Program-made: the position numbers and the translations under genes | Notes under the pieces: generated by a model | Database searches by the model: none | The model's input: only the letters and a program-made list of their open reading frames with translations | Told to the model about the DNA's origin: nothing | Shown here: positions 1-61,754 of the stretch, piece after piece | How positions within the stretch are numbered: the first letter of the stretch is position 1 | Layout of the letters: each line of letters begins with the position of its first letter | NCBI GenBank assembly: GCA_052388435.1 | Contig: JBQTIC010000059.1 | Location: 14,395-78,394 of the forward strand | Direction: 5' to 3' | Source of the DNA: Chromatiales bacterium | GTDB taxonomy: Bacteria; Pseudomonadota; Gammaproteobacteria; JAJPIJ01 | Length of the DNA: 64,000 bases

Positions 1-40
1 GGCTCGTGAATCAGCGCTTGATACCTCGTCGTCATGGATA

Positions 41-733
41 CTACGGCCGTGGCACCGATATACGCTGGATCGACTGGATGCTTCTGATCAGGTTGTCGAT
101 CGCGCGCAGGCGCATCCGTTGCGGAGGCGTAGGCGGGCTGTGGGCATCAGGTACCGTCGTCCCCCAACCGGGCTCATCAATGACCACGCTGCCGTAAGCG
201 TTCGCCACCTCGATGGCGGAAGAAGTCCCGGCCTCCTCCGGCTCGAGCAGGACGATGGTGGCGGACTCACCCACCACTTCGCCGCCCACGGTCGTGCCGC
301 GGATGCCGATCGTGGCAACGGCGCCCGCCTCCACGCGCATCGAGCTTGCTCTGGCCCTGGCGATGAGGCCGGTGGTGAATCGGAAGGCGCCGCGCACCAC
401 GCGCATGGCGATGCTGTCATCCTGTCCCTGCGCGTAGCGGAATCCGGCGATGGCGAAGCTTGAGTCAGGGCCTAGCGAGAATGTGGTGTTATCCTTGAAC
501 CGTATCGTGACCACTGAGCGGCTTCGGGTCTCGATGCGGTCGTTCAGGTGCACGGCGTCTCCTGCGGAGAGCGGATATGCGATGCCGTCGTCTGCGAAGC
601 GGGCGGCCTGCCCCTTGAGTTGAGCGACTTCGCCGACCTCGGACGTAGCGGCGACAACGGTTGAGGGATGGAGTGCGCCCAGGGACAGCAGCAGTAGCGA
701 CAGGATCCATGCGCTTGGTTTCATAGTGGCCAT
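41..733 (-). CDS. Exported FecR-domain protein (signal peptide, no cytoplasmic anti-sigma domain), paralog 1
   Basis: Start chosen at ATG 733 (MATMKPSAWILSLLLL) with GAAGGAG RBS upstream; FecR-type motifs GDAVHLNDRIET, LGPDS, RGAFRF, TIGIRGT; clearly similar to 53465..54151. Confidence 0.85.
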   Translation of the reverse strand: MATMKPSAWILSLLLLSLGALHPSTVVAATSEVGEVAQLKGQAARFADDGIAYPLSAGDAVHLNDRIETRSRSVVTIRFKDNTTFSLGPDSSFAIAGFRYAQGQDDSIAMRVVRGAFRFTTGLIARARASSMRVEAGAVATIGIRGTTVGGEVVGESATIVLLEPEEAGTSSAIEVANAYGSVVIDEPGWGTTVPDAHSPPTPPQRMRLRAIDNLIRSIQSIQRISVPRP

Positions 734-805
734 TTCTCCTTCAGTCGAAGCGTGACAGTGAGGTTCGCGAGTTGCCGAAACGCCCCACTCCCTCAGGGCG
801 GGCCG

Positions 806-1717
806 ATGCATGCCGCGGCAAGCTGCATTCTGCTCGGCGCGCTGACACTGACGGCGTGTGCCCCCCTTGCCAGTATCGCAGGCAAGGATCCGCGAGCTAA
901 AGCGCTCGCGATCGCGGCTCAAGGAGGTCTTGAGCATAACACTGTTTCGACCGGTCCGTTTCGGCTGCTGACCTTCAGTCGCGGTCTTAAGAGCGCGCCC
1001 TCGCTGGTCATCTACATAGAGGGTGACGGCCATGCCTGGCGCACGCCGCGAACCCCGTCGTCCGACCCCTCGCCGCGGGATCCCGTGGCCCTGCGACTGG
1101 CAATCCTCGATGACTCCCCGTCAGTGTTGTACCTCGCAAGACCCTGTCAGTTCCTCACCGCTGCAGAGTTGGCCCAGTGTGAGCAAAGGTACTGGACCAG
1201 CCATCGCTACTCGACGGACGTCATCCTGGCGATGAATACCGCTATCGATCGGATGCTGGCCAGCACCAGGGCGGTCGGTGTCAAGATCCCGATCGGTCTG
1301 GTGGGTTACTCCGGCGGAGGGACTGTCGCCGCCCTGATTGCGGCGATTCGAAACGACGTGGGTTGGCTGGTTACTGTGGCGGCCAACCTTGATCATGACG
1401 CGTGGACCGGGTGGCATCGTGTCACGCCGCTGAGGGAGTCGCTGAATCCGCCCGACATGACAGCAAGACTGCGCTCGACTCCTCAGGTTCATCTGGCGGG
1501 CGAGCGGGACCGGCTCGTTCCGCCGTGGATCGCGAACTCGTTCCGGCAGCGACTCGGCGAGCGCGCACCCGTCATCGTGGAGACGGTTCCAGACTTTGAC
1601 CATCAGTGCTGCTGGGAGGCAGTATGGCCGCGGATCGCCTGTCAGCAACTGGAGAGGTTGCGTGGCATCGCGTTTACGCCATGCCGCAGCCGCGCCGCTC
1701 CGCTGCAAGGGGAATAG
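806..1717 (+). CDS. Alpha/beta hydrolase lipoprotein, paralog 1
   Basis: Lipobox LTAC; YIEGDG; nucleophile elbow GYSGGG; DRLVP acid and C-terminal DH-CCW; similar to 54195..55025. Confidence 0.85.
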   Translation: MHAAASCILLGALTLTACAPLASIAGKDPRAKALAIAAQGGLEHNTVSTGPFRLLTFSRGLKSAPSLVIYIEGDGHAWRTPRTPSSDPSPRDPVALRLAILDDSPSVLYLARPCQFLTAAELAQCEQRYWTSHRYSTDVILAMNTAIDRMLASTRAVGVKIPIGLVGYSGGGTVAALIAAIRNDVGWLVTVAANLDHDAWTGWHRVTPLRESLNPPDMTARLRSTPQVHLAGERDRLVPPWIANSFRQRLGERAPVIVETVPDFDHQCCWEAVWPRIACQQLERLRGIAFTPCRSRAAPLQGE

Positions 1718-1801
1718 CTGGCGGGACTCGCTGATGGATGCGAGGGGGGTTGAGCTTCTGAATCCCGGCGCCGAGCTGGAGCCGACGGATTTGACGGCCG
1801 C

Positions 1802-2995
1802 TTACTCTTCTGATGCATGCAGGATGAAAAGCTTCAGGTACTCGGTCTCCGGGATTGAGAGGTGGACAGGGTGGTCGGGACCTTGGTGCCCTTGCTCGAG
1901 TACGCGTGCACGCCGATGTGCGCCGAGTGCGGCTTGGCGCAGCAGGTCGCGAAAGTCAGGCGCCGGCAGATGCGAGGAGCACGAAGCGCTGATCAACACG
2001 CCATCCCCGGCGAGCAGTTGCATGGCCATGGTGTTGAGCCGGCGGTAGGCCTCCGAGCCGTTATCGAAGTCCTTTTTGCGCTTGATGAACGCGGGCGGGT
2101 CGAGGATGATGACATCGAAGCTCGCTCCGGCATGGCGCAGGTTCTTCAGCGCGTCGAATGCGTCGGCCTGTCGTACCGACAACCGGTTGCTCACCGCGTT
2201 CAGTTCGCTATTCTTCTGCAGCCGCTTCGCGGCAGTGGGAGAACTCTCGACGCAGGTCACCTCTGTGGCGCCGGCCACTGCCGCTTCGATCCCCCACGCA
2301 CCGAGATAGCTGAACACATCCAACACACGCCGGTCGGCCACGTAGTGACGCATGCGTTCCCGGTTGAGACGATGATCGAAGAACCATCCGGTCTTCTGTC
2401 CGCCAAGCAGCGGCACCTCGAACCGGCAGCCATGCTCGGCGATCATGACTGTCTCCGGAACTTCCCCGCTTGCGGTCTCAATGTAGGCGGGCAGGCCTTC
2501 GAGCGCCCGTGCCGGACTGTCGTTGCGCAAGAGAATCGCCCGCGGGGATATCGCGGCGTTCAGCATGGCGAGGATGGCGTTTTTGATGGACTCCATCCCT
2601 GCCGTGTTGATCTGCACCACCAGAATGCTCCCGTAGCGATCGACAATGAGTCCCGGCAGCCCATCGCTCTCACCGTAGATCAGCCGGTAGTAAGGCTCCT
2701 CGAACAGGCGCGTGCGCACTTGCAGCGCCGCACGGATGCGCGCCTCGATAAGGCCAGGCGCAAATGGTTGTGCGGGATCGCGACTGACAAGCCGCGCGCA
2801 AATGAGCGAACGCGGATTGACATAGCCGGTACCCAGAGCCTTGCCGTTGTGGGTGAGTACGGACACGGCCTGCCCCGGCGCGAAAGCAGTGAGTGGCGTG
2901 CGCGCCGTATCGACCTCGTTGCTGAACACCCATACGTGCCCGGCACGCAGGCGGCGCTCTTCATGTTTCTTCAGTATCAGGGGCGCGTAATCCAT
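1802..2995 (-). CDS. rlmI: 23S rRNA m5C1962 methyltransferase RlmI-like (class I SAM-dependent, PUA domain)
   Basis: LKKHEERRLRAGHVWVFSNE, GESDGLPGLIVDRY, GQKTGWFFDHR, VLDVFSYLG, DPPAF. Confidence 0.9.
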   Translation of the reverse strand: MDYAPLILKKHEERRLRAGHVWVFSNEVDTARTPLTAFAPGQAVSVLTHNGKALGTGYVNPRSLICARLVSRDPAQPFAPGLIEARIRAALQVRTRLFEEPYYRLIYGESDGLPGLIVDRYGSILVVQINTAGMESIKNAILAMLNAAISPRAILLRNDSPARALEGLPAYIETASGEVPETVMIAEHGCRFEVPLLGGQKTGWFFDHRLNRERMRHYVADRRVLDVFSYLGAWGIEAAVAGATEVTCVESSPTAAKRLQKNSELNAVSNRLSVRQADAFDALKNLRHAGASFDVIILDPPAFIKRKKDFDNGSEAYRRLNTMAMQLLAGDGVLISASCSSHLPAPDFRDLLRQAALGAHRRARVLEQGHQGPDHPVHLSIPETEYLKLFILHASEE

Positions 2996-3209
2996 TGCGG
3001 TCTCGTGAGCGAGCACATAGTATAGTGGCAGCTTCCACTGCCCCTGCGCCACGCACGCTGCGGCTGTCCGGCGCGCATGAGGGTGGTTGTGCAGTCTCGC
3101 CGCCTCACTGCATAGTGCCAGGGGAGGCAGGGCGTCCGGTCGCTCGCGACTCAATGTAGATGGAATAAAGCGACGGGAGGATCACCGCGCCTCCCGGCCG
3201 AACCAATCC

Positions 3210-3713
3210 ATGCGCTATTCCACGCGACCTTTTCCTTCGTATCGCTTCGTGCCCGGCAAGGCGCCGCATCCAACGCGCGATCCGGAAGGTCATTCCTATG
3301 GCCGGGACGAGCCCCATGTGGGTGACTTTGGCGAGCACAATTGGCTGGAGACGGATGCGTATCTGTACGGCGTCGACCTGTTCAATCACGGCTACTGGTG
3401 GGAGGCCCACGAGAGCTGGGAGGCCTGCTGGGTGGCGGCGGGCCGCCGCACCGAGATCGGGTTGTTCGTTCAGGGACTGATCCAGATATCAGTGGCCTGC
3501 CTAAAGCGGCATCAGGGCTTCATCGACGTCGGGCAGCGCATGGCGTGGGACGGCCTGGAGAAGTTTCCCCGGAACGCACCCTGCTGTCTCGGTATTGTCA
3601 TTCAGGAACTCAGGGCAGCGGTCGAAGCGTGCTTTTTCGGTGATCGAAGCGAGCCCCCCGTGATCGGTCTCAACGTGAGCCAGAGCTCAAAAAGTCGGGT
3701 CGGTGACAACTGA
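3210..3713 (+). CDS. DUF309 family protein
   Basis: FNHGYWWEAHESWEACW and QGLIQISVA motifs; start moved to ATG 3210; stop codon lies inside a palindromic repeat. Confidence 0.8.
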   Translation: MRYSTRPFPSYRFVPGKAPHPTRDPEGHSYGRDEPHVGDFGEHNWLETDAYLYGVDLFNHGYWWEAHESWEACWVAAGRRTEIGLFVQGLIQISVACLKRHQGFIDVGQRMAWDGLEKFPRNAPCCLGIVIQELRAAVEACFFGDRSEPPVIGLNVSQSSKSRVGDN

Positions 3714-3739
3714 TTTCTCATTTGTCGCCGACCCCTTTT
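3689..3739. repeat. REP-like palindrome, copy 1
   Basis: Arms GGGTCGGTGACAA (3697-3709) and TTGTCGCCGACCC (3722-3734); near-identical copy at 4731-4779. Confidence 0.85.
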
Positions 3740-3771
3740 CGCGGCGTTAGTTCCAGGTCCCACATACATCG

Positions 3772-4185
3772 TCACATGTTGTCGTACATGCTGCCCGGAA
3801 ACTTTTCGAGGCCATCGTCGATGGTGTAGTAATCGCCGGCATCGGCAACGTAGATGTGACGAGTCGTGCGTAGCCCGGTAGGCGGATCGAGCGTGCCTGC
3901 GGCGATGGCGATACAGTCCCGTCCCGCGGGTTCCCAGAACACGCTTGCGCCGCATTCCGCACAGAAGCCGCGTCGTGCGCGCGACGAGGACAGGTACCAC
4001 TTCAGTCCACGGTCGCAGGTCAGTGTCAACTGCGAGTGCGCTGCCGAGGTATAGGCGCCGAAGTGGCCATGCGTGCGGCGGCACTGACTGCAGTGACAAT
4101 TCACGACGTCGCGCATGGGTCCGTGCACCACGTAGCTTACCGCGCCGCAGAGACACCCACCGTGGTGTTTGTGTTGTGACGTCAT
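3772..4185 (-). CDS. GFA/CENP-V family Zn-binding protein
   Basis: GGCLCGAVSY, CHCSQCRR, RGFCAECG motifs. Confidence 0.9.
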   Translation of the reverse strand: MTSQHKHHGGCLCGAVSYVVHGPMRDVVNCHCSQCRRTHGHFGAYTSAAHSQLTLTCDRGLKWYLSSSRARRGFCAECGASVFWEPAGRDCIAIAAGTLDPPTGLRTTRHIYVADAGDYYTIDDGLEKFPGSMYDNM

Positions 4186-4384
4186 GTCCGCTCCTTCGCA
4201 ACCGACAGTTGTTCCGCTGGATTCTAAAAACTGCCGGCTGCATGCGGCGATACCTACTTCGGCATAGCCGTGAGATGTTAGCTCTGGCTTCCCTTCATAC
4301 GCGCTGCCGTCCCTGCGGACCTTTCAAAGAAATCCGCGGTCAGGCCGCGATACCCCGAACTGGCGCTTGGCCCTAACTAAGACG

Positions 4385-4560
4385 GCTGGCGATGTCTTCG
4401 GATTGATGCGGGCACGAAACAGCGACTCGCTGGCATAGATGTCCGACGCCCATCACCAGATGGCTGTCCATGATGACGTTCTTGATCGGCCCGGCCCTGG
4501 CCGCCACACTCTCGCCGTCATACGTGAAGGCTCGCAGGGTCTGCACGGTAAACGCCTTGC
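4385..4560 (-). pseudogene. mutM: Fragment of formamidopyrimidine-DNA glycosylase (MutM/Fpg H2TH region), frameshifted
   Basis: IKNVIMDSHLVMGVG followed, after an apparent 2-bp loss at about 4441, by IYASESLFRARINPK; matches the Fpg motif MD...VVGVGNIYASESLF. Confidence 0.7.
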
Positions 4561-4730
4561 GTCCTTCATGGGGACTTAAGCAGCGATGCAATAGGTAACG
4601 GCCCCGTAACGCCTCCATCGCCGAATCGTGCTGCGCTCTGCGGTGTCAACGTAGCTATTGTCGAGGTCTCGCACCAACCGGCCGCCGTCTCAGGTGGCGG
4701 CCGACCCGCTCACTGATGCGCTTCACCAGC

Positions 4731-4779
4731 AAAAAGTCGGGTCGGTGACAAGTGATTCTCATTTGTCACCGACCCCTTT
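4731..4779. repeat. REP-like palindrome, copy 2
   Basis: Perfect 13-bp arms GGGTCGGTGACAA (4739-4751) and TTGTCACCGACCC (4763-4775). Confidence 0.85.
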
Positions 4780-4853
4780 CTCGCTGAGCCGCTCCCTGAC
4801 GCCGTAAGCTTGCGGTGCGCGAGCGGCAGCACCGGCGCATCGAAGGACAGGGG

Positions 4854-4859
4854 TATAAT
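4854..4859 (+). promoter_or_regulatory. Candidate sigma70 -10 box upstream of rsxE-nth
   Basis: Exact TATAAT about 30 bp before the rsxE ATG; no clear -35. Confidence 0.35.
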
Positions 4860-4888
4860 GTTGTGGAATCTTCCGGCACGATTGCCCG

Positions 4889-5584
4889 ATGGCCCCTTCG
4901 TTGAATGCAAGCTGCTGCGACGGCCTGTGGCGGCGGAATCCGCTGCTGGTGCGGCTGCTGGGGCTGTGCCCGCTGCTCGCGGTGAGCGACCGGCTGGTGA
5001 CCGCGCTGACGATCGGCCTCATCATGGTCATGGCGCTGACGTGCACCGAGGTGCTGACCGCCGGCACCCGGTATTTGATCCCGGCGCAGGCGCGTCCGGC
5101 CTGTCAGGCGCTTTTTGCGGCCTCGGCGGTGACGGTTATGCAGCTTCTCCTGCAGGCGCACGTGCCTGGACTGGCGCAGGCGCTCGGCATCTATGTGCCG
5201 GTCGTGGCGGGCTGCTGCCTGCTCATCGCCCGCGCCGAGGAGTTCGCCGCGAGACAGCCGGTCGCAGAGGCACTGCTCGACAGCCTGGGCCACGGATTGG
5301 GCATCCTTGCAGTGCTACTGCCTCTGGCTGCATTGCGGGAGATCATTGGCTACGGCAGCCTGTTGCGGGACGCGGATCTCCTCTGGCCGCAGGCGGGAAA
5401 CTGGCCGGGTATTGGCGTCATGGCCGAGGAGTGGGGTCTCGCCGTCGCCGCGCAGCCCGCAGGCGCTCTGCTTCTCCTCGGCACCCTGCTTGCGCTGCGC
5501 AATACGCTGGTGGGGACCCGCACGCGACCATCAGCAACGCTCCATGAACAGCACCCGGCGCGCCGCGATCTTCCAGCGGCTTGA
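4889..5584 (+). CDS. rsxE: Rnf/Rsx electron transport complex subunit E-like (divergent)
   Basis: GLWRRNPLLVRLLGLCPLLAVS, RAEEFA, LREIIGYG; directly upstream of nth as in rsx-nth operons. Confidence 0.8.
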   Translation: MAPSLNASCCDGLWRRNPLLVRLLGLCPLLAVSDRLVTALTIGLIMVMALTCTEVLTAGTRYLIPAQARPACQALFAASAVTVMQLLLQAHVPGLAQALGIYVPVVAGCCLLIARAEEFAARQPVAEALLDSLGHGLGILAVLLPLAALREIIGYGSLLRDADLLWPQAGNWPGIGVMAEEWGLAVAAQPAGALLLLGTLLALRNTLVGTRTRPSATLHEQHPARRDLPAA

Positions 5585-6310: not shown

Positions 6311-6732
6311 ATGTTCATTGGTGAGCGCGCAACGGCGAGACGCTTCTTCGCCGAGGCCCAAGCAGCTCGGGGGGCTGGCGCTGGGGCCGCTGGAATTCAT
6401 GCTCGCGGGAGTCGTGGCGGAGCACTCGGAGTATCACGCCTTGCTCACCGCCGCGGACTTCCCGCTCGAAGAGGAGTACACACCGGAGCGCGGTATCGCG
6501 AATCCCTTTCTGCATATGGGCATGCATCTTGCGAAGAACAGGTGAGCACGGATCGCCCACGGGGATCGCGGCACTCCACCGGCGACTGCTGCGTCGCCTC
6601 GGCGATACTCATGTCCTGGAACACCGCAGGATGGACTGCCTGGGTGAGGCGCTGTGGCGTGCGCAGCGCGATAACGTGTTTCCCGACGAAGGGGCTTGTC
6701 TTAACTGCCTGCGGAGACTGATGCGCGTATGA
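6311..6732 (+). pseudogene. DUF1841 family protein with three frameshifts
   Basis: Segments in successive frames: MFIGERATARRFFAEA / KQLGG...EHSEYH...YTPERGIANPFLHMGMHLA / EEQVSTDRP / TGIAALH...EHRRMDCLGEALWRAQR; shifts near 6359, 6533, 6558. Confidence 0.75.
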
Positions 6733-8012
6733 CCACAATGGTGGATGTCACGGCCGCACCATCTCCTGGAGACAGACACACGCTGGAGCGCCAGGTAAAG
6801 GTCCTGGCGGAGGCGATTCAGAGCTTCGCCGTGTCCCTCAACCTTCAGGAGACGCTGCGCCACGCCATCGCGAGCTTCGTTGAGTACCTGGACGCCGAGG
6901 CCGCTTCGATCTTTCTCCTTGAGAACAACAACAACGAACTGGTGTGCCAGCAGTGCGCCGGGCCGGTCGACATCACCGGTCTGCGCATGGACGCGAACCA
7001 GGGCATCGTCGGCAAGACGGTGCGCGAGCTGTCTTGCCAGATGGTCCGCGACGTGCAGGGCGAAGAGAGTTTCTACGCCTCCATCGACGCGGGCACCGGC
7101 TTTGCGACGCGCTCGATCCTCTGCGCGCCGCTGGTCGTGCGCGGCCAGTGCATCGGCGCCCTGGAGCTCGTCAACAAGAAGAGCAACGACGGCCGCTTCG
7201 ACGAGGATGACATGCATCTGGTTACCGCGCTCGGCTCGGCAGTGGCGCTGGCCGTACACAATGCGCGCATGGCGGCGGTCCTGGTGGAACAGGAGCGTGT
7301 GCGCAAGGAGCTGGAACTGGTGCGCGAAGTGCAGGTCAACCTGTTGCCGAAGGCCACGCCGGAGGTGGCGCCGGTGGTTGCCGTGAACATTCCGGCGCGC
7401 GAGGTGTCGGGGGATTTCTACGACTACTTCGCCCTTCCGGATGGACGCATTTACTTCAATCTCGGCGATGTTTCCGGCAAGGGCATGAACACGGCGCTTT
7501 GGATGGCCAAGACCACCGGGCTGCTGCGCTGCCTGGCGAAGAGCGCGCCGGATTTGAGCACTCTGTTAGCGCGCGTCAACGATGAGGTCTACGCCACCTC
7601 CTCGCACGGCATGTTCGTCACGCTGGTGACTGGCATGCTCGACCTCAAACGCGATGAGGTGCTCGTCGCCAATGCCGGCCACCTGCCGGCGCTCTACCGC
7701 GGGACGGATGGCGCCTACCGAGAGCTGTTCGCGGAGGGGCCGCCCCTCGGCGTGATGCCGGAGGCGGAATTCCGCTGCACGCGGCTCGCCCTTGCCGGCG
7801 GCAGTCTTTATCTGGTTACCGACGGCGTCACCGAATCGGCGGACGCCGAGAACCACGCGCTGGGCGTTACCGGGCTGCGCCGCCTTATCGACCGCGTCGC
7901 CCACCTTACGCCGCGCGCCCGGCTGGAACAGTTGGTGGCGGCTCTGCGCCTCTCAGGCCAGCGCCAGCGCGACGACATCACCCTGATGCTCCTTGAGAGG
8001 CCTCGGTTATGA
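6729..8012 (+). CDS. GAF + SpoIIE/PP2C phosphatase (RsbU-like)
   Basis: GAF (ASIFLLE...SILCAPL...IGALELVNK); PP2C motifs SGDFYDYF, GDVSGKG, ANAGH, TDGVTE, DDITL. Confidence 0.9.
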   Translation: MTTMVDVTAAPSPGDRHTLERQVKVLAEAIQSFAVSLNLQETLRHAIASFVEYLDAEAASIFLLENNNNELVCQQCAGPVDITGLRMDANQGIVGKTVRELSCQMVRDVQGEESFYASIDAGTGFATRSILCAPLVVRGQCIGALELVNKKSNDGRFDEDDMHLVTALGSAVALAVHNARMAAVLVEQERVRKELELVREVQVNLLPKATPEVAPVVAVNIPAREVSGDFYDYFALPDGRIYFNLGDVSGKGMNTALWMAKTTGLLRCLAKSAPDLSTLLARVNDEVYATSSHGMFVTLVTGMLDLKRDEVLVANAGHLPALYRGTDGAYRELFAEGPPLGVMPEAEFRCTRLALAGGSLYLVTDGVTESADAENHALGVTGLRRLIDRVAHLTPRARLEQLVAALRLSGQRQRDDITLMLLERPRL

Positions 8013-8425
8013 GGAGCAGGCGCCTGCTTAAGCTGCGCTTTCCCTCCGACCCGGCAATCCTGCGCAAGGTGCGCGACCACGTGCGCGCGGCCGCCGAGAA
8101 ATGCGGCTGCGGCGCGCAGGTGGTGGACCAGATTGTCATCGCCGTCAACGAGGCATGCACGAACATCATGCAGCACGCCTACAAGGGCGAGGGCTCAGGT
8201 GCAATTGTTTTGGAAATCTTCAATAATGGCCACGAGTTGGAGTTTCACCTCCGGGACTTCGCGGAGCCGATGGACCTGACTTCGATCGGACCGCGCAAAC
8301 TCCATGAGCTGAAGCCCGGTGGACTGGGGACTCACTTCATCCGACAGATCATGGACGAGTATGCCTACGGACACCTGCACGGAAAGTCCGGCAACTTCCT
8401 GCACATGAAGAAGAGGATAGGCTGA
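8009..8425 (+). CDS. RsbW/SpoIIAB-like Ser kinase (HATPase_c)
   Basis: AVNEACTNIMQHAY N-box, PGGLGTHFIRQIMD G-box; ATGA overlap with upstream phosphatase. Confidence 0.9.
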   Translation: MRSRRLLKLRFPSDPAILRKVRDHVRAAAEKCGCGAQVVDQIVIAVNEACTNIMQHAYKGEGSGAIVLEIFNNGHELEFHLRDFAEPMDLTSIGPRKLHELKPGGLGTHFIRQIMDEYAYGHLHGKSGNFLHMKKRIG

Positions 8426-8510
8426 CACCCGCCCGGTGGGGCAGGCATGGACACAAATTAGGGTGGCAGCGGCGGATGACGGGTGTACATCATCCATGGA
8501 GCGCCGTGAC

Positions 8511-8843
8511 ATGACTTACGCAGTGCGCAATGAGGGCGGCTATGCCATCGTCGAATTGACCGGCGACGTCGACCTGTCCCGCTCGCCGGTCGCCAGATCA
8601 ACCATCCTGTCCTGCCTGGCCGGTGCGCGCCATGTACTGGTGGATCTCTCGGAGGTCACCTATATCGACAGCTCCGGCGTGGCGAGCCTGGTGGAGGGCT
8701 ATCAAACCGCGAAGAAGAACAAACTCCGGTTCGGTCTCATTGGCGTGAGCGAGGCGGCGCTGAACGTGCTGAAGCTGGCGCGCCTGGACAAAGTCTTCCC
8801 GATCCACGCCACACTCAGCGATCGCGTCAAGGCGGATGGCTAG
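8511..8843 (+). CDS. STAS-domain protein (RsbV/SpoIIAA-like anti-anti-sigma type)
   Basis: VDLSEVTYIDSSGVASLV with the conserved phospho-acceptor Ser; LKLARLDKVFPI. Confidence 0.9.
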   Translation: MTYAVRNEGGYAIVELTGDVDLSRSPVARSTILSCLAGARHVLVDLSEVTYIDSSGVASLVEGYQTAKKNKLRFGLIGVSEAALNVLKLARLDKVFPIHATLSDRVKADG

Positions 8844-8912
8844 CCCCGGTGCCATTCATGCCTGGGGAGTAACGCCGTGCTGGCCGATCCCTTAGTCGCC
8901 TGCCCGTGTTGA

Positions 8913-9722
8913 ATGTCGACACGCACTGACGCCTTGATCGCATCCGTAGAACGTCTCGGCCGCGCGACCGTCGCGGTTGTCGAGGAGTTCGGCTACTACT
9001 TTCTGCTGCTGGTGGAGAGCCTTTACTGGCTGCTGTTCGGCTTCCTGCGCCGGCAGCCGGTGCGGGCGTCTGCCATGGCCGCCCAGATGATGGCCATCGG
9101 CATCGCCGCCGTTCCAATCGTGGTGATTCTCGCCTTCACCATCGGCGTCATGCTCGCCATCCAGGGCATACACACGCTGAAGACCTTCGGCGCCGAGGAA
9201 CAGGTCGTGGTCGGGATCGCGCTGTCCGTCACGCGCGAATTCGGTCCGCTCATCACCGCCATCGTCGTGGCCGGGCGCTCCGGTTCGGCGCTGGCCGCGC
9301 GCATCGGCACCATGCAGGTGTCGCAGGAGATCGACGCCCTGCGCGTCATGAGCATCAATCCGGTGCGCTACCTTTCCTCACCGGTGCTCGCGGCGATGCT
9401 GGTGATGGTCCCCTCGCTCACCCTGGTTGCGGACTTCGCCGGTCTGTTCGGCGGTGCCGTGTTCAGCAACATCGAGCTGGGGTTATCTTACAACGCGTAT
9501 GCGGATCGCACACTGACGGCGCTGCAGGTCGACGACGTGATGCAGGGTCTCATCAAGAGCCTGGTGTTCGCTGCCATCATCACCGTCATCGGTGTCAGCA
9601 ACGGCTTCCAGGTAACGGGCGGCGCCGAGGGGGTCGGCAGGGCGACGACACGCTCGGTGGTGCTGGCGATCTCCTATATCGTTGTCGCCGACATGCTGTT
9701 TACGTATTTCCTTAACCGCTGA
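8913..9722 (+). CDS. mlaE: MlaE-family ABC permease
   Basis: REFGPLITAIVVAGRSGSALAARIGTMQVSQEIDALRVM; GVGRATTRSVV. Confidence 0.92.
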   Translation: MSTRTDALIASVERLGRATVAVVEEFGYYFLLLVESLYWLLFGFLRRQPVRASAMAAQMMAIGIAAVPIVVILAFTIGVMLAIQGIHTLKTFGAEEQVVVGIALSVTREFGPLITAIVVAGRSGSALAARIGTMQVSQEIDALRVMSINPVRYLSSPVLAAMLVMVPSLTLVADFAGLFGGAVFSNIELGLSYNAYADRTLTALQVDDVMQGLIKSLVFAAIITVIGVSNGFQVTGGAEGVGRATTRSVVLAISYIVVADMLFTYFLNR

Positions 9723-9725
9723 CGT

Positions 9726-9956
9726 AGGAGTCTGTCGGAGCTGACACGCCATGCGCATTGCTGGCCAGACACGGCTACGGCTGCGACCCGGTGCGCGCAG
9801 CGGCGAGTGCGGAAGCGGGCCCACGCACACCGAGGTCGCCATCGTTCCGGCGCGCCGACTCGGTCCCGCACCTGCCACTGCGCGAAACCGTAGACCGGTC
9901 GGCGCATCGAAAATCGCACACCGTCGCGCACAGCAGCTTGAGTCCGACAGACTCCT
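9726..9956. mobile_element. MITE-like element with perfect 14-bp terminal inverted repeats
   Basis: AGGAGTCTGTCGGA (9726-9739) and TCCGACAGACTCCT (9943-9956); 231 bp, no credible ORF; fills the mlaE-mlaF gap; no obvious target duplication. Confidence 0.65.
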
Positions 9957-9971
9957 GGCCCGGAGGGATGC

Positions 9972-10772
9972 ATGAACGGCGTGAGCGCAGCACCGGTCAT
10001 CGAAGTCAGGGATCTCGTGGCTCATTACGGTACGCGCAAGATCCTGGATGGTGTTCACTTGGATATCCCGCCCGGCGAGATCCGCATCATCATGGGGGGC
10101 AGCGGTTCGGGCAAGAGCACGCTGCTGCGCCACCTCCTCGGCATCAACCGGCCAACGAGCGGTAGCATCCGCCTGCTTGGCATCGACGTCACTGACGCCC
10201 CGGCGGCGGAGCTGTATCAACTGCGCAAGAAGATAGGCGTTGCCTTCCAAGGCGGCGCGCTGTTCAGCTCCATGACCGTCGGTGAAAACATCAAGCTGCC
10301 GCTGCGTGAGCACGCGAAGCTCGATGAGAAGACCATGGAGATCATGGTGCGCCTGAAGCTCGAGGTCGTGAATCTGGCCGGCTTCGAGCACCTGATGCCG
10401 GCGCAGCTCTCCGGCGGGATGGTGAAGCGCGCGGCCGTGGCCCGCGCCATCGTCATGGACCCGAAGGTACTCTTTTTCGACGAGCCTTCCGCCGGTCTGG
10501 ATCCGGTTGTCTCGGCCGAACTCGACGAACTCATCCTCCGGCTGCGCCATGCGATGAACATGACCATCGTGGTGGTGACACACGAACTGGAGAGCGCGCT
10601 GAAAATCGCCGACCGCATCACGGTGCTGGACCAGGGACGCATCCTCATGACCGGGACCGTCGAGGAAGTGCAAAGCAGTGACATCGCGCGGGTGCAGGAT
10701 CTGCTCAATCGCCGACCTCGCGCCGATGAGGTTAATCCCGACGACTACCTGCGCCGGCTGACCGAAGGATGA
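9972..10772 (+). CDS. mlaF: MlaF-family ABC ATPase
   Basis: Walker A GGSGSGKST, signature LSGGMVKR, Walker B FFDEPSAGLDP, VVTHE. Confidence 0.92.
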   Translation: MNGVSAAPVIEVRDLVAHYGTRKILDGVHLDIPPGEIRIIMGGSGSGKSTLLRHLLGINRPTSGSIRLLGIDVTDAPAAELYQLRKKIGVAFQGGALFSSMTVGENIKLPLREHAKLDEKTMEIMVRLKLEVVNLAGFEHLMPAQLSGGMVKRAAVARAIVMDPKVLFFDEPSAGLDPVVSAELDELILRLRHAMNMTIVVVTHELESALKIADRITVLDQGRILMTGTVEEVQSSDIARVQDLLNRRPRADEVNPDDYLRRLTEG

Positions 10773-11828
10773 ATGTGCATGCGACGCGATCACATCAATT
10801 ACTTCATCGTCGGCCTGTTCGTGCTCAGCGTCTCGGTCGCCCTGCTCGCCCTGCTCTACCGCCTCACGGGGACTACGGGACCGACGGACCGCTATTACGC
10901 CTACTACGATAACGTTGGCGGCGTGAAGTACGGCACGGTGACATACTACAAGGGCTACCAGGTCGGTCAGGTGGAGCGCATCACGCCCGAGCAGCGCGAT
11001 CACGCGACACGCTACCGCGTCGAGTTCAGTGTCACCCGCGGCTGGCAGATCCCACGCGGCAGTGCGGCCGCCATCGTCATCCCCGCCCTGCTCGCACCGG
11101 TCGTGATAGACATCCGCGAGGGGCCGGGACCGGAGCGGCTGCCGCCCGGTTCGGAACTCGAAGGGGCGGAGCAGGCGAATCTCTTCGCCGCCCTCAACGG
11201 CGTCGCGGCTGACTTCCACGAGCTGTCGAGAGAAGGCATCCAGCCCATGCTGCGCAATCTCAACGAGCGGATCACCGCGCTCAGCAAGGAGTACGAGTCG
11301 CTCTCGCGGGACGAGGTGCGGCCACTCCTGGAGCGGCTGCAGCAGCGTCTTGACGACCCGGAGCTTTTCGCCGATCTCAAACAGGTAATCGACAAGCTGG
11401 ACGCCGGCGCAGACGCACTGCTCTCAGTGCTGAGAGAAGAAAATCAGCAGCACCTCGCCTCCATCTTGTCCAATGCCGACCGTGGATCGGCGCAACTGAA
11501 CGAAGTGCTCGTACGTATCGAGGGTACGCGCGTGCTCATGCATCACCTGCTCGAACAGATGGACCAGCTGGTCGCTGAAAATCGCAGTGGTGTGACACAG
11601 ACCGTCGGGGACGCCGCGACCGCAATGCAGGAGCTGCGGGACAGCATCCGCACGGTGGCAGACAACGTGGATAGCATCCTGCATTATCTGGAGAGCGGCA
11701 CCCGCAACATAAATGAGTTCAGCCGCGAGGTGCGCGAGAATCCCGGGATACTCTTGCGTGGCAAACCGCCGCAGGATCCGCTGCCCCCCGGTGGCAACAA
11801 CAGCAGCAGCGTGGAGGAAGAGCCTTGA
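10773..11828 (+). CDS. mlaD: MlaD/MCE-domain protein with long helical extension
   Basis: N-terminal TM (VGLFVL), MCE motif VTYYKGYQVGQVERI, heptad-rich helical tail, end ENPGILLRG. Confidence 0.85.
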   Translation: MCMRRDHINYFIVGLFVLSVSVALLALLYRLTGTTGPTDRYYAYYDNVGGVKYGTVTYYKGYQVGQVERITPEQRDHATRYRVEFSVTRGWQIPRGSAAAIVIPALLAPVVIDIREGPGPERLPPGSELEGAEQANLFAALNGVAADFHELSREGIQPMLRNLNERITALSKEYESLSRDEVRPLLERLQQRLDDPELFADLKQVIDKLDAGADALLSVLREENQQHLASILSNADRGSAQLNEVLVRIEGTRVLMHHLLEQMDQLVAENRSGVTQTVGDAATAMQELRDSIRTVADNVDSILHYLESGTRNINEFSREVRENPGILLRGKPPQDPLPPGGNNSSSVEEEP

Positions 11829-12442
11829 GACATTGGAAGATCATCGCTTGTGTGCTGATCGGGCTCACCACTGGCTGCGGGCGCAATGTGGCGGTGCCGA
11901 CCGACGTCTACTATCGTCTTGGCGCACCTCGCGTGGCACAATCGCTCGCGCGGCCGCTGACGGAGGGGGTGTTGTTCGTGGGCACTTTTCGCAGCGACGG
12001 TCTGAGCGGCGAGCGGCCGCTGGTATACAGCGATGCCCCGGACGATCTCACACTGAGGCAATATCATTACCATCATTGGGAGGACCCGCCGCCGCGGCTG
12101 CTGCGTCGACAACTGGTGCACTACCTGCGCGCCGCAAAGGCTGCCGGAACCGTCATGTCGGGTAAGGAGGCCAAATCCGATCAGGTGGTGCGCGGGCGGC
12201 TGTGGCGTTTCGAGCACGTGTTGCGCAAGAATGACACCTTTGTGCGAGTAGCGCTGGAGCTGCGACTGGAGGATCGGGAAGGCCGCGCGCTGCTGTTGAA
12301 GGATTACGAGGTGGAGAAGGTCGCCGCGCGCAGGGACGTGGCAAGCGTGGTCGCGGCAATGGACGAGGCGGTCAACGAGCTGTACGGCCAGTTCCTGGCC
12401 GATGCCGCGCGTGCCACCTCCGCTTTGAGCGCGGCGCCGTGA
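11825..12442 (+). CDS. ABC-type transport auxiliary lipoprotein (PqiC-like)
   Basis: Lipobox LTTGC; YYRL, QYHYHHWEDPPPRLL, RFEH; follows the MCE gene with TTGA overlap. Confidence 0.8.
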   Translation: MRHWKIIACVLIGLTTGCGRNVAVPTDVYYRLGAPRVAQSLARPLTEGVLFVGTFRSDGLSGERPLVYSDAPDDLTLRQYHYHHWEDPPPRLLRRQLVHYLRAAKAAGTVMSGKEAKSDQVVRGRLWRFEHVLRKNDTFVRVALELRLEDREGRALLLKDYEVEKVAARRDVASVVAAMDEAVNELYGQFLADAARATSALSAAP

Positions 12443-14691
12443 ACGCGATCCTGGTAAGGCTCCGCCGGCATTGGATCCGTATCGCCTTGGGTCTCGCGGT
12501 GCTGGTAGCCTTCCTCCTGCACGTCCGCGAGGAGGAGGGCGGTCTGTTCCGCGTGGGCCTCATCGACCAGCTGGAGAATTTGGCCTACGACACCCGGCTC
12601 GCATTCAGCATGCCGCGCACCCTCGATCCGCGCATCGTCATCGTGGACATTGACGAAAAGAGCCTTGCGGCCGAGGGCCGCTGGCCGTGGCCGCGGCACC
12701 GGCTTGCGAAGCTGCTCGAGCAGCTGTTCGGCACTTACAGGGTGGCGCTGGTCGGGTTCGACATCGTCTTTGCCGAACCCGATGAAAGCTCGGGGCTCAA
12801 GGTACTGGAGCGTCTCGCGGCCGGTGAGCTAAAGGCCGTGCCGCGGTTTGACGAGGCGCTGGAGCAGCTCCGCCCCCAGCTCGACAATGATGCCATCTTC
12901 GCGGGCGCTTTAGGCGAATATCCGGTTGTGCTCGGATACTTCTTCAATGAGCAGGCGAAGGCGCGCACCGGCGCGCTGCCGGCGCCGACCTTCATCAAGG
13001 GCAGCTTCCCCGGCAAGCGCATCGCCTTCCGCGACGCCGCCGGCTACGGCGCTAACCTCGCCCTCTTCAACGAGGCGGCCTTGGGTGCGGGTCATTTCAA
13101 TCCGTGGCTGGACGTAGACGGCGTGGTGCGCCGGGTGCCGATGGTGTTTTCCTTCGAGGGGGCTCAGTACGAGGCCCTGTCGCTGGCTGTCGCCCGCCAC
13201 TACCTGCAGGTCAAGGATGTGCGGGCCGAATTCGAGCCCGTACCCTCGCTGGCGGCGAAGAGCTACTCGGGGTTGGAGTGGCTGCGCATTGGAAAAGCGC
13301 GCATCCCGGTTGATGAGCACGTCCAGGCACTGGTGCCGTACCGGGGCCATCAGGGCAGCTTCCCGTACGTGTCCGCGACTGACGTCATCAATGGCAAGGC
13401 GGACCCGAAGCTGCTGAAGGAGGGAGCGATCGCGCTGGTGGGCACGACCTCCGCCGGCCTGCTCGACCTGCGGGCCACGCCGGTGCAAAGGGCCTACCCC
13501 GGAGTGGAGATCCACGCCAACCTGATCGCCGGGATCCTGGACGGGCGGATCATGCAGCAGCCCGCCTATACGCGCGGCGCGGAGTTCGTGCTCCTCGCTA
13601 TCTTTGGTCTCGTCTTTGCGCTGACACTGCCGATGTTGAGCCCGCTCGCAGCGACTCTGGCAGCTCTGGGCATGCTCGGTGGTTACATCGGGGTCAACCT
13701 CGCATTCTGGCACTTCGGCACACTGGTCCTGCCGATTGCCTCCGGCGTCCTGATGATGCTGGTGATGTTCCTGTTGAACATGTCCTACGGCTACTTCATC
13801 GAAACCCGCGGCAAGCGCCAGCTCACCGGACTGTTCGGACAATATGTGCCGCCCGAGCTGGTCGACGAGATGGCCAAGGACCCCGAACAGTACTCGCTCG
13901 AGGCGGAATCCCGGGAGATGACCGTGCTCTTCTCCGACGTGCGTGGCTTCACCTCCATCTCCGAGGGGCTGGAGCCCAAGGAGGTCGCCGAGCTCATGAA
14001 TCAGATGCTCACACCAATGACGACCGTGATTCACGACCATCGCGGCACGATCGACAAATACATGGGCGACGCGATCATGGCCTTCTGGGGGGCACCGGTG
14101 CCGGACCTCGAGCACGCGCGTCACGCCATCACCGCGGCCATGGAGATGATGGCGAAGCTGGAGGAGATGAACGCGCAGTTCAAAGAGCGCGGCTGGCCCG
14201 AAATCAGGGTTGGCATCGGGATCAACACCGGCGTGATGAACGTGGGCAACATGGGATCGGAATTCCGCATGGCCTACACGGTGCTTGGCGACAGCGTCAA
14301 CCTGGGATCGCGCCTGGAAGGTTTGACCAAGGGCTATGGCGTGCACATCATCGTCAGCGAGGCTAGCAAGGATGCAGTCCCGGATTACGCGTATCGGGAG
14401 CTCGACGTTGTGCGGGTCAAGGGCAAGGACAAGCCGGTCGGGATCTACGAACCGATTGCGCCGGCCACCGCTGTCGACAAGCGGCTGCAGGACGAGCTGA
14501 AACTGTACCGCCAGGCGCTCAGGTACTATCGCACCCAGCAGTGGGACATGGCCGAGTTGCAGTTCCTCAACCTCGCGAAGGCCGCGAACTCCGGCTACCT
14601 GTATAAGATGTACGCCGAGCGCGTAGCGTATTTCCGGCGCAATCCGCCCGGCAAGGACTGGGACGGCGTGTTCACCTTCACCACCAAGTAA
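12439..14691 (+). CDS. CHASE2-domain class III adenylate cyclase
   Basis: CHASE2 (IVIVDIDEKSL..GRWPWPR, DVDGVVRRVP, YPGVEIHAN), 3 TM, cyclase FSDVRGFT, DKYMGD, GINTG, YTVLGDSVNLGSRLEG (K/T residues indicating ATP specificity). Confidence 0.93.
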   Translation: MNAILVRLRRHWIRIALGLAVLVAFLLHVREEEGGLFRVGLIDQLENLAYDTRLAFSMPRTLDPRIVIVDIDEKSLAAEGRWPWPRHRLAKLLEQLFGTYRVALVGFDIVFAEPDESSGLKVLERLAAGELKAVPRFDEALEQLRPQLDNDAIFAGALGEYPVVLGYFFNEQAKARTGALPAPTFIKGSFPGKRIAFRDAAGYGANLALFNEAALGAGHFNPWLDVDGVVRRVPMVFSFEGAQYEALSLAVARHYLQVKDVRAEFEPVPSLAAKSYSGLEWLRIGKARIPVDEHVQALVPYRGHQGSFPYVSATDVINGKADPKLLKEGAIALVGTTSAGLLDLRATPVQRAYPGVEIHANLIAGILDGRIMQQPAYTRGAEFVLLAIFGLVFALTLPMLSPLAATLAALGMLGGYIGVNLAFWHFGTLVLPIASGVLMMLVMFLLNMSYGYFIETRGKRQLTGLFGQYVPPELVDEMAKDPEQYSLEAESREMTVLFSDVRGFTSISEGLEPKEVAELMNQMLTPMTTVIHDHRGTIDKYMGDAIMAFWGAPVPDLEHARHAITAAMEMMAKLEEMNAQFKERGWPEIRVGIGINTGVMNVGNMGSEFRMAYTVLGDSVNLGSRLEGLTKGYGVHIIVSEASKDAVPDYAYRELDVVRVKGKDKPVGIYEPIAPATAVDKRLQDELKLYRQALRYYRTQQWDMAELQFLNLAKAANSGYLYKMYAERVAYFRRNPPGKDWDGVFTFTTK

Positions 14692-14759
14692 GCACGCGGG
14701 TTGAACGGCCGTTGGATTGACAGAACTGATCTGCGGTGCCGCATGACTGGATTCGGGGC

Positions 14760-15200
14760 TTAGCTCCGGTCGCCCATGATGTAGTGCTGGAGCTGGTCGA
14801 TGATAAATCTCTGCTCGGAGATGATGTCCTTGACCAGATCGCCGATCGAGACGATGCCAACCAGCGTGCCGTCTTCAATGACGGGGAGGTGGCGCAGGCG
14901 GTTCTCGGTCATCAGTGCCATGCATCCCTCGTTGGTCTGGTCGGGGCGCACGTACATGACCGGGGAGGTCATGATTTCGCGCACGAATGTCTCCTTCGAC
15001 GCTCGCCCCATGAGCACGACCTTCCGGGCGTAATCGCGTTCACTGATGATACCGACGACCTCCTCGCCCTCCGTCACCACGAGCGCGCCGATGCCTTTGT
15101 CGGCCATCAGCCTGAGGGCGTCGAAGACCGACGCCGTGGGCGCGATGGTCTGCACGGTCTGATCCGGTTTGCCCTTAAGGATCTGAGCCACGGTTTTCAT
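14760..15200 (-). CDS. CBS-pair protein
   Basis: IGALVV...GIISERDYARK, RHLPV...GIVSIGDLVK. Confidence 0.9.
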   Translation of the reverse strand: MKTVAQILKGKPDQTVQTIAPTASVFDALRLMADKGIGALVVTEGEEVVGIISERDYARKVVLMGRASKETFVREIMTSPVMYVRPDQTNEGCMALMTENRLRHLPVIEDGTLVGIVSIGDLVKDIISEQRFIIDQLQHYIMGDRS

Positions 15201-15306
15201 GAGCGATTCTGCGTGGTAAAGCCTGGGGCGAAAGCGATCTGTCCGAATACTCAGGCGCGCTGCCGCCGCCCAAGGAAAGGAAATCCGGGGAGTCCGGTGC
15301 GGGGGA

Positions 15307-19432: not shown

Positions 19433-19593
19433 GGAGGAACGCTGGGAGGAAGCTTTCTTGGGCTCTTGCAGTCCCGCTGATAGTACCACTTATGCTAACA
19501 GTAAGAATAGCTTACGCCGACAGGACGCGAATGCAGCCGCGAGTGAGCCCGTGGATGCCCGGCCCTCAGGCCGGTGGCCCGCAGCACCTGCGA

Positions 19594-20058: not shown

Positions 20059-20286
20059 GGCGCGGAAACAGGCTGATGGTTGTTGCGCTCGTCCGTACAA
20101 GGCCGGTGCACGCAACGCCGGCTGGAGTAATCTCGTTAGCGTCGGGAAACCGGTAAAGTTTAGCGCGCCGGAAGCCGGGATGCCTGAACAGACGGCATAC
20201 GCATGCCCCTTCGTCAACAAGCAGCGGGCGCAGCGGTCTGCTGCGGGGAGGAGGCGATTACATCGATACGGCCGGGCAGGTGGAGA

Positions 20287-44231: not shown

Positions 44232-44272
44232 GGATCTTAGTCGTCGTGCTCTCTACACGATCAGGCAACGTA

Positions 44273-45340: not shown

Positions 45341-45346
45341 ACCGCC

Positions 45347-61695: not shown

Positions 61696-61754
61696 TTACG
61701 CGTGACTGGTAATTCGCGCTTGCTCAGTGGTGAACAGCCCGCCACCCAAGGTTG

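Follow-up and report, generated by a model that had tools for sequence, protein, structure and literature searches.

Nearly all that is understood of FecR domains comes from iron uptake anti-sigma factors, of which they form part and on which TonB-dependent receptors pull. In the envelope systems RcsF-OmpA/C/F and TagQ/TagR-PpkA, outer membrane lipoprotein sensors report to inner membrane transducers. In Escherichia coli, FecR cleaves itself at G181|T182; FoxR undergoes self-cleavage through an N-O acyl shift (PMC12036975). CHASE2 histidine kinases are known to share operons with exported LysM-FecR proteins (PMC5192318). The present analysis concerns two loci that encode exported FecR-domain proteins in 64,000 nucleotides of a Chromatiales bacterium (GenBank assembly GCA_052388435.1, contig JBQTIC010000059.1, positions 14,395 to 78,394; the whole of this stretch is referred to as the window). 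Comparative genomics and structure prediction, on which the whole account rests, indicate that the window holds two anciently diverged copies of a three-gene envelope cassette, comprising a FecR-domain protein, a lipoprotein α/β-hydrolase (Hyd), and a 12-strand autotransporter-type β-barrel (AT). All cassette components belong to known families, and it is very probable that together they constitute a functional unit.

At locus 2, FecR-2 (53465..54151, + strand), an exported soluble FecR-domain protein of 228 amino acids (aa), and the α/β-hydrolase lipoprotein Hyd-2 (54195..55025, + strand) are co-directional and separated by 43 nucleotides (nt), and AT-2 (55057..56487, − strand; 476 aa) is convergent with Hyd-2 across a 31-nt gap. 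At locus 1, FecR-1 (41..724, − strand), likewise an exported soluble FecR-domain protein, and the α/β-hydrolase lipoprotein Hyd-1 (752..1717, + strand) are divergent. FecR-1 begins MKPSAW and has 227 aa, the length of the public gene call P0121; a listed open reading frame (ORF) at 41..1033 is an upstream overextension of the same gene. Hyd-1 starts at either GTG 752 or ATG 806, and the gap between the divergent genes is about 30 to 80 nt (27 nt with the GTG start); this short spacer (725..805, inspected by sequence) presumably holds the promoter region shared by FecR-1 and Hyd-1. Consensus scans around both loci gave no sigma-70-like promoters or terminators above shuffle expectation, and an Rfam scan of the whole window found no RNA family. 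FecR-1 shares 45% identity with FecR-2 over 224 aa (E 1e-60), and Hyd-1 shares 35% with Hyd-2 over 278 aa (E 7e-42), a paralogy that in both families far exceeds chance. The first-pass annotation, made from the window sequence, had already reported the two FecR-hydrolase pairs, and all four ORFs, as well as the divergent and co-directional layouts, were reproduced here; the motifs that it quoted are present in both copies, and most of their residues are invariant or near-invariant in wider alignments. It had not counted the barrel AT-2 as a member of the module.

The associations among the three families were examined in 175 related loci, including 80 hydrolase-anchored loci (one genome per species) and 80 metagenomic loci anchored on the FecR subtype, with six-frame hidden Markov model searches for all three families. 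The commonest neighbor of both FecR and the hydrolase across these loci is a small autotransporter-type barrel. Of the 55 hydrolase-anchored loci flanked by 3 kb or more, 36 have a barrel within 3 kb of the hydrolase and 4 (7%) have FecR; of the 44 flanked by 6 kb or more on each side, 35 have a barrel and 11 (25%) have FecR within 6 kb. The barrel is also positioned closely, being at ≤2 kb in 23 of the 39 hydrolase loci that have about 10 kb on each side and at 6 to 10 kb in none (Fisher p 2e-9). From the FecR side, metagenome loci with at least 3 kb of flank contain a barrel in 12 of 16 cases and a hydrolase in 6 of 16, and within 7 kb of the 95 full-length FecRs of the subtype there is a barrel in 50, a hydrolase in 35, and both in 31. 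The barrel is the hub of the cassette: it accompanies FecR with or without the hydrolase and the hydrolase with or without FecR.

These counts modify the earlier idea of a self-contained two-gene periplasmic module of FecR and hydrolase with no dedicated outer membrane partner. The pairing does recur and is no peculiarity of this genome, as a hydrolase lies near more than a third of the FecRs of the subtype (the 35 of 95 above) in several gene orders and orientations, and the FecR and hydrolase identity matrices co-vary (Mantel r 0.82, 0/2000 permutations). In addition, no barrel was seen at three loci (L090, L094, and L095), all with limited flank. Nevertheless, 31 of the 35 loci with both FecR and hydrolase have a barrel too, and so do window locus 2 and the syntenic counterpart of locus 1; FecR-AT pairs exist without a hydrolase, and most hydrolases have no FecR nearby, so that FecR is only a minority partner when viewed from the hydrolase side. 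What recurs is therefore not a pair, the barrel being the most constant partner of both families, and the two-gene explanation is considered improbable.

AT-2 matches the autotransporter β-domain PF03797 over nearly the full profile (E 3e-54; residues 187-454, profile positions 1-254 of 255) and also matches TIGR01414, and the barrel has a weak NCBIfam match to EstP that covers the barrel portion only. The N-terminal ~150 residues of AT-2 consist of a signal peptide, a Cys-pair loop (FICP...DRCND), and a highly charged linker helix; barrels of the AT-1 type have about 60-70 residues in front of the barrel. An N-terminal Cys-x(8-30)-Cys loop followed by a charged helix and then the barrel is the hallmark of the subfamily, and no Pfam domain was found in the passengers. 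AT-2 is 61% identical to the barrel of L001-L003, which share its gene order.

The third member of locus 1 should lie just outside the window. Relatives of FecR-1 with 61-75% identity are found in the order Hyd(−)← →FecR(+)→barrel(+, 366-368 aa) in L100 and L161-L165, and the divergent gene beside them is a Hyd-1 orthologue (48-53% identity). L174, arranged as RlmI→ ←Hyd, FecR→, barrel→, is an exact mirror image of window 41..3154; its FecR is 74% identical to FecR-1 and its RlmI 73% identical to that encoded at window 1802..3154. Because of this mirror synteny, and of L100 and L161-L165, a barrel gene (AT-1, about 366-370 aa, − strand) is expected beyond window position 1, where it should begin ~60-130 nt past the FecR-1 stop; the window itself contains the first part of the spacer 3' of FecR-1 (1..40). 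More distant FecR-1 relatives (55-59% identity) keep the FecR→barrel arrangement without a hydrolase.

At least four gene orders occur. FecR→Hyd→←AT is found at window locus 2, L001-L003, and L081; Hyd← →FecR→AT is the locus 1 type; AT→ ←Hyd FecR→ is found in L082, L083, and L146; and AT→Hyd→S8-subtilase-cadherin→FecR is found in Gallionellaceae and Nitrosomonadales. The divergent FecR-1/Hyd-1 layout recurs in 12 loci (L082-L084, L086, L087, L100, L161-L165, and L174). The hydrolases found with the closest relatives of FecR-1 are of the Hyd-1 type, and those found with the closest relatives of FecR-2 are of the Hyd-2 type. The two cassettes of the window thus represent paralogous lineages of long standing, each of which has been passed on as one unit. 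Comparison with syntenic orthologues in L169 gave ratios of nonsynonymous to synonymous substitution rates (dN/dS) of 0.19 for FecR-1 and 0.17 for Hyd-1, which are therefore genes under purifying selection. Related Gamma- and Betaproteobacteria contribute many of the loci, and shared ancestry inflates the counts, so inherited synteny without any coupling has to be weighed. However, the association has persisted through an ancient duplication and through rearrangement into at least four gene orders, and the barrel is concentrated within 2 kb of the hydrolase with none at 6 to 10 kb. The association is maintained, not merely inherited.

The genomic context of locus 1 suggests that the cassette behaves as an insertable unit, as it occupies the rlmI-side position of rnfCDG in the window (1..4900), L169, and L174. 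In L172 (1..3900) and L173 (1..3400), rnfC-D-G itself abuts rlmI, splitting the rnf operon from rnfE-nth. Two variants of composition were also observed. In 10 loci from Gallionellaceae, Nitrosomonadales, and related metagenome-assembled genomes, a protein of ~1560 aa with an S8 subtilase domain and cadherin repeats is encoded between Hyd and FecR. In a soil FecR lineage (15 loci), a 537-aa protein that contains a spermidine-synthase-like domain takes the position of the hydrolase, divergent from FecR and convergent with the barrel.

Both FecR proteins match the FecR domain PF04773 above the gathering score (FecR-1, E 1.7e-8; FecR-2, E 1.9e-9), and the N-terminal signal segment is the only hydrophobic one in either protein. 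The same largely holds for their homologues, 113 of 120 of which have the N-terminal segment and 4 of 120 any later hydrophobic segment. Pfam detected neither DUF4880/PF16220 nor FecR_C (PF16344) in FecR-1 or FecR-2 (E ≤ 0.01), whereas both DUF4880 (3.6e-10) and FecR_C were detected in E. coli FecR, the positive control, in an equivalent search. A LysM domain was not matched in either protein by Pfam. Neither locus has an extracytoplasmic function (ECF) sigma factor or TonB-dependent receptor beside it, the flanking genes encoding RlmI, DUF309, GFA, RnfE, Dxs, the autotransporter barrel, and phosphonate enzymes, and none of the six window ORFs of ≥600 aa encodes a TonB-dependent receptor. FecR-1 and FecR-2 cannot be counted among anti-sigma factors, as they have no anti-sigma domain, transmembrane helix, or FecR_C and are therefore unable to bind a cytoplasmic sigma factor. 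The presence of the FecR Pfam domain could be taken to favor classical anti-sigma FecRs whose sigma factor and receptor are encoded elsewhere, but their domain content rejects this candidate; together with uncoupled inherited synteny, it forms an alternative to which hardly any credence is given. The description of both FecRs in the first-pass annotation, as exported, without a sigma-binding region, and without an adjacent ECF sigma factor or TonB receptor, is upheld by the controlled Pfam search, the hydrophobicity analysis, and the survey of neighbors; the case that it named as refuting its reading, a membrane-anchored anti-sigma factor with a cognate ECF sigma, is ruled out by the domain content.

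In an alignment of 30 FecR sequences, G137, R139, G140, and T141 are invariant, as is or nearly so a C-terminal tail comprising S193, P194, P195, P197, R200, N208, L209, R211, R218, P222, and R223; within the LLEPEE motif, L156 is the sole invariant residue. In the AlphaFold2 model of FecR-2 (predicted local distance difference test [pLDDT], 91), the signal peptide is followed by an all-β body (residues 26-188), and short helices are all that is seen after residue 200. Foldseek matched it to the periplasmic domain of PupR (6ovk_R, E 7e-5), the Parabacteroides anti-sigma protein BDI_1681 (4m0h), and 5ix9, with a template modeling (TM) score of about 0.5 for 6ovk_R and 4m0h. Residues 28-108 match 5ix9, the “cell surface anchoring” domain of MpIBP, both by sequence (E 2.4e-8) and by fold (root mean square deviation [rmsd] of 1.0 Å over 62 columns, with 29% identity). 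The equivalent residues of FecR-1 are likewise homologous to the RTX adhesin retention domain. The NCBIfam model retention_LapA (NF033682) scored 29.4 and 37.8 bits on the two FecRs, below its 50-bit cutoff. The architecture of the cassette FecRs is thus a Sec-type signal peptide, a retention-module-like β-sandwich, the FecR β-domain, and a Pro-rich/basic C-terminal helix, and the matches suggest a common origin of the FecR-associated β-sandwich and the adhesin retention module.

This resemblance raises the alternative of regulated surface anchoring and release in the manner of LapA/LapG, in which the N-terminal domain and C-terminal helix of FecR would engage the barrel and cleavage by the hydrolase (in variants, by the caspase or S8 protease) would free or activate an element exposed at the surface. 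In addition to the match of the N-terminal 80 residues to 5ix9 and the retention_LapA signal, the 1560-aa S8-cadherin protein encoded between hydrolase and FecR in Gallionellaceae, the invariant Pro-rich SPPSPP linker, and the occurrence of S9 prolyl peptidases among the fold matches of the hydrolase are compatible with it. Against it, there is no RTX adhesin, LapE-type TolC channel, LapD, or LapG, no 12-strand autotransporter barrel is known that holds a protein provided in trans, the barrel passenger is tiny, and the best NCBIfam score was 37.8 bits rather than 50. Anchoring and release is a serious rival but is judged distinctly unlikely.

The IGIRGT motif reported earlier is present in both copies (FecR-1, window 293..310, − strand; FecR-2, 53870..53887, + strand, G140-T141). 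RGT occurs in all 95 full-length FecRs of the subtype, and the Gly-Thr pair is invariant in the 30 aligned sequences. PF04773 spans residues 110-202 of E. coli FecR (profile positions 2-96) and residues 59-155 of FecR-2 (profile positions 1-90), and the Gly-Thr of FecR-2 and G181|T182 of E. coli FecR both fall near profile position 74-77. Alignments of the subtype with E. coli FecR by hmmsearch, hhalign, and local pairwise comparison with a shuffle control were all nonsignificant. Equivalence of the FecR-2 Gly-Thr to the E. coli self-cleavage site is therefore probable rather than proven, as it is supported by colinearity of Pfam coordinates and not by direct alignment.

Both hydrolases are predicted lipoproteins, with an LTAC lipobox in Hyd-1 (848..859) and a VAAC lipobox in Hyd-2 (54240..54251). 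GYSGGG lies at 1304..1321 in Hyd-1 and, with Ser158, at 54660..54677 in Hyd-2, and the DHQCCW and DHACCW motifs lie at 1598..1615 and, with His252, at 54945..54962, respectively, all on the + strand; Asp224 is the remaining triad residue of Hyd-2. In an alignment of 26 hydrolases, R106-P107-C108, G156/S158-G159-G160-G161, D251-H252, and C254-C255-W256 are invariant, as are the triad S158, D224, and H252 and four Cys residues, and the lipobox Cys is at least 90% conserved; a lipobox-like motif was found in 93 of 120 homologues. The presence of four invariant Cys points to disulfides, in keeping with a periplasmic location. In Hyd-1 and Hyd-2 alike, Ala follows the lipobox Cys. In E. coli, the Lol sorting rule holds that the residue in this position sets the destination of a lipoprotein, and by this rule Ala suggests that the hydrolases are targeted to the outer membrane. 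The public gene call for Hyd-2 (P0001; 265 aa, starting MALIVAAC, 54195..54260 region) loses most of the signal peptide, and a normal lipoprotein signal results if the gene starts at TTG 54195 or ATG 54222. The Hyd-1 orthologues as called in L169 (262 aa) and L174 (249 aa) are apparently truncated at the N terminus too.

The hydrolase family is large (>4,800 clusters). Hyd-1 has no Pfam match, and Hyd-2 matches the general α/β-hydrolase families Abhydrolase_1 and DLH. The AlphaFold2 model of Hyd-2 (pLDDT, 92.8) is a canonical α/β-hydrolase with Ser158, Asp224, and His252 placed after β5, β7, and β8. Foldseek returned about 1,500 α/β-hydrolase matches in the PDB, the best of which split between esterases and S9 peptidases with TM scores of ~0.5-0.6 for both, and sequence matches to the PDB were marginal. 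The label of an esterase or lipid-processing enzyme that the first-pass annotation had given to these proteins is therefore a guess and is not established, as the fold fits esterases and S9 peptidases equally well.

An envelope maintenance complex without any signaling would suit several of these features. The hydrolase, for example as a lipase, deacylase, or peptidase, would do the work on outer membrane lipids, lipoproteins, or the barrel's own passenger; the barrel would provide the dock; and FecR would be an inhibitor, chaperone, or adaptor. The invariant triad and four Cys imply enzyme activity under selection, the hydrolase-barrel pair is far commoner than the triad of genes, other periplasmic hydrolases recur in variants of the module (the caspase lipoprotein, S8 subtilase, and SLT lytic transglycosylase), and window locus 2 sits among genes for MlaA, MlaC, HpnB, HpnH, and a phosphonate cluster. 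However, this lipid gene neighborhood is not conserved in other loci, and Ser/Thr kinases, FHA proteins, and CHASE2 cyclases, all of them signaling proteins, are repeatedly found with the module. In other settings, the FecR domain takes part in relaying signals, and FecR-AT pairs persist without the hydrolase. Maintenance without signaling is a serious alternative that is nonetheless regarded as somewhat unlikely.

Most members of the hydrolase family have no FecR nearby, and many of them belong to a sister module. A caspase of ~800 aa with Sel1 repeats and a lipobox is encoded in 26 of the 44 well-flanked hydrolase loci and is usually accompanied by a Ser/Thr kinase with a single transmembrane helix after the kinase domain. 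FecR and the caspase are mutually exclusive in these 44 loci (FecR only, 11; caspase only, 26; both, 0; p 4e-6), and the membrane Ser/Thr kinase is never found alongside FecR. The hydrolase and barrel look like a common core that may be wired either to FecR or to the caspase/kinase set. The loci with the caspase/kinase module include L004-L007, L010, L012-L018, L020, L023, L024, L027, and L045, and about 11 caspase/kinase loci also encode a protein in which an FHA domain, a transmembrane segment, and an SLT lytic transglycosylase domain are joined. A gene for IcmF/TssM (type VI secretion) lies ~5 kb from the sister module in five loci. No published description of the caspase/kinase module was found.

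A link to CHASE2 transducers is suggested by a small number of loci and lends some support to the relay outside classical signaling that the first-pass annotation had proposed. In L086, the order is Hyd-1-type← →FecR→CHASE2 cyclase→AT, and the cyclase is 56% identical over its full length to the CHASE2 adenylate/guanylate cyclase of the window (12439..14691, + strand; Pfam CHASE2 and Guanylate_cyc), which here lies outside the cassette. In L088, a cyclase 53% identical to the same protein follows directly after FecR, and in L092 a CHASE2 cyclase is 4.5 kb from the cassette FecR. Two FecRs that are more divergent in sequence and lack the tail (L155 and L158) are CHASE2 adjacent too. The window contains two CHASE2 transducers, the cyclase and a Ser/Thr kinase (16886..19489) with PP2C and FHA partners, as well as two cassettes, and the cyclase at 12439..14691 is a candidate inner membrane receiver acting in trans. 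The co-occurrence analysis suggested in the first-pass annotation, which named CHASE2, barrel, and TpsB genes, thus had a mixed outcome: the barrel proved the most constant partner, CHASE2 is only occasionally adjacent, and no TpsB or POTRA gene was met in any locus examined.

The explanation that we favor as a whole, tentatively and with slightly less than balanced confidence, combines the cassette with a sensing and relay mechanism. The barrel and the lipoprotein hydrolase would form a putative outer membrane complex for sensing or processing a substrate in the envelope or at the surface, and the FecR-like protein would be a periplasmic adaptor. FecR probably self-cleaves at Gly-Thr, and its halves would stay associated, as in E. 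coli FecR. It would pass the state of the complex on to an inner membrane transducer that has a periplasmic sensor domain; a CHASE2 cyclase or kinase is the most plausible receiver, in place of an ECF sigma factor. In hydrolase loci without FecR, the lipoprotein caspase and the bitopic Ser/Thr kinase may fill the corresponding role. A relay from the outer membrane to CHASE2 or another transducer is, taken by itself, possible but doubtful. Its most specific form is unlikely; this is a TonB-independent cell surface signaling pathway in which a mini-barrel and hydrolase act as sensor, a self-cleaved free FecR acts as carrier via its C-terminal helix, and the periplasmic CHASE2 domain of a cyclase or Ser/Thr kinase is the receiver. 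On that reading, CHASE2 would gain a protein ligand, and the FecR domain would be a general envelope relay rather than an anti-sigma accessory.

Several observations weigh against this mechanism. Only 3 of 80 loci place CHASE2 next to a FecR of the tail-bearing subtype, and the nearest CHASE2 gene of the window is 10.7 kb from Hyd-1, a proximity that is not kept in L172 and L173. The cassette FecRs are without STN/FecR_C, the subdomain that contacts the outer membrane partner in classical signaling, and any contact between FecR and the barrel therefore needs a different interface. The C-terminal tail of FecR is absent from the kinases and caspases that replace it, with no sign of a shared docking element; a swapped docking element was rejected, as the tail is confined to proteins of the FecR subtype among all six-frame ORFs of the loci. 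There is no barrel within 6 kb in 9 of the 44 hydrolase loci and no tracked partner of any kind in 5 of the 44. To our knowledge, self-cleavage has never been demonstrated for a Sec-exported FecR domain.

The CHASE2 genes of the window belong to a conserved superlocus of their own (6729..20220), which also occurs in L169, L172, and L173 with cyclases that are 64-85% identical. It opens with a partner-switching set (a GAF-SpoIIE phosphatase, an RsbW-like kinase, and a STAS protein), which is followed by MlaE, an ABC ATPase, MlaD, and an auxiliary lipoprotein, with a 4-nt overlap (translational coupling) to the CHASE2 cyclase; a convergent operon encodes DUF4124, the CHASE2 Ser/Thr kinase, PP2C, and FHA proteins. 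An extended superlocus joining locus 1 to the CHASE2 operons (10-18 kb) was considered and rejected, as L172 and L173 keep the CHASE2 region while rnfCDG replaces the cassette.

Upstream of locus 2 are genes for MlaA (47306..48067), MlaC (48121..48747), HpnB (hopanoid; 48883..50004), and HpnH (50072..51211) and dxs (51425..53320), and the glycolate oxidase genes GlcE/GlcF are at 44246..46552. A phosphonate cluster of the 2-aminoethylphosphonate type (56675..63157, − strand) encodes a class V aminotransferase, a thiamine pyrophosphate-dependent decarboxylase, a phosphoenolpyruvate mutase–nucleotidyltransferase fusion, a second nucleotidyltransferase, a 2-oxoglutarate-Fe(II) oxygenase, and a CDP-alcohol phosphatidyltransferase, a content that suggests synthesis of a phosphonolipid or phosphonoglycan. 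Elsewhere, the lipid neighborhood of locus 2 is unconserved, except for dxs at a distance of ~4 kb in L060, L061, and L074.

The FecR cassette is carried by many environmental Gamma- and Betaproteobacteria, including iron and sulfur oxidizers, and FecR-less hydrolase-barrel modules are found in methanotrophs and Nitrospirales. Among cultivable carriers, Gallionellaceae and Sideroxyarcus-type isolates have the FecR form, and Methylomicrobium and Marinobacterium have the caspase/kinase form. No published description of the cassette was found in the literature on FecR with autotransporters, caspases, or CHASE2, and PADLOC defense models did not match the hydrolases, FecR, or the barrel. The cassette sets a free exported FecR domain beside a different outer membrane protein and a lipoprotein hydrolase with an intact triad. 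If the three proteins cooperate, they would represent a new coupling of the outer membrane to inner membrane cyclases and kinases, which could supply the missing input for CHASE2 sensors. The sister caspase/kinase module points to a wider undescribed family of envelope devices.

Several known systems can be compared with the cassette. With the FecR/FoxR/PupR regulators it shares the PF04773 domain, a PupR-type fold, the invariant Gly-Thr, and the pairing with an outer membrane β-barrel. Unlike these regulators, the cassette FecRs have no DUF4880, transmembrane helix, or STN/FecR_C, no ECF sigma gene is nearby, and the signal peptide is of the Sec type rather than a Tat-inserted anchor. Their partner is a 12-strand autotransporter barrel rather than a 22-strand TonB-dependent transducer, and TonB-driven pulling is therefore not expected. 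LysM-FecR proteins (COG4254; PA4035-like; the Burkholderia “BiofilmReg” operon, PMC5192318) resemble the cassette FecRs in being exported, in lacking an anti-sigma part, and in their CHASE2 link. In contrast, the cassette FecRs have no LysM but a Pro-rich/basic C-terminal helix, their neighbors are barrel and hydrolase genes, and CHASE2 adjacency is exceptional.

The other likenesses concern parts of the cassette or its logic. RcsF-OmpA/C/F and TagQ/TagR-PpkA are comparable only in how they work, with a lipoprotein plus a barrel or anchor, a periplasmic relay, and an inner membrane transducer, and in the commoner variant of the hydrolase module the transducer would be a Ser/Thr kinase with an FHA protein. 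There is no sequence relationship to either system, and the cassette lipoprotein is a hydrolase that looks catalytically intact, while its barrel is a dedicated autotransporter-type protein. The LapA/MpIBP retention module matches the β-sandwich at FecR residues ~28-108 by sequence and fold, but the cassette has no adhesin repeats, type I secretion signal, or LapE, LapG, or LapD genes. Finally, the type Va esterase autotransporters EstA and EstP also combine an autotransporter β-domain with a serine hydrolase at the outer membrane. In the cassette, however, the hydrolase is a separate α/β lipoprotein and not a fused GDSL passenger, and what remains in front of the barrel, unlike the passengers of type Va autotransporters, is not a substantial domain but a segment of only ~35-150 residues with one Cys pair.

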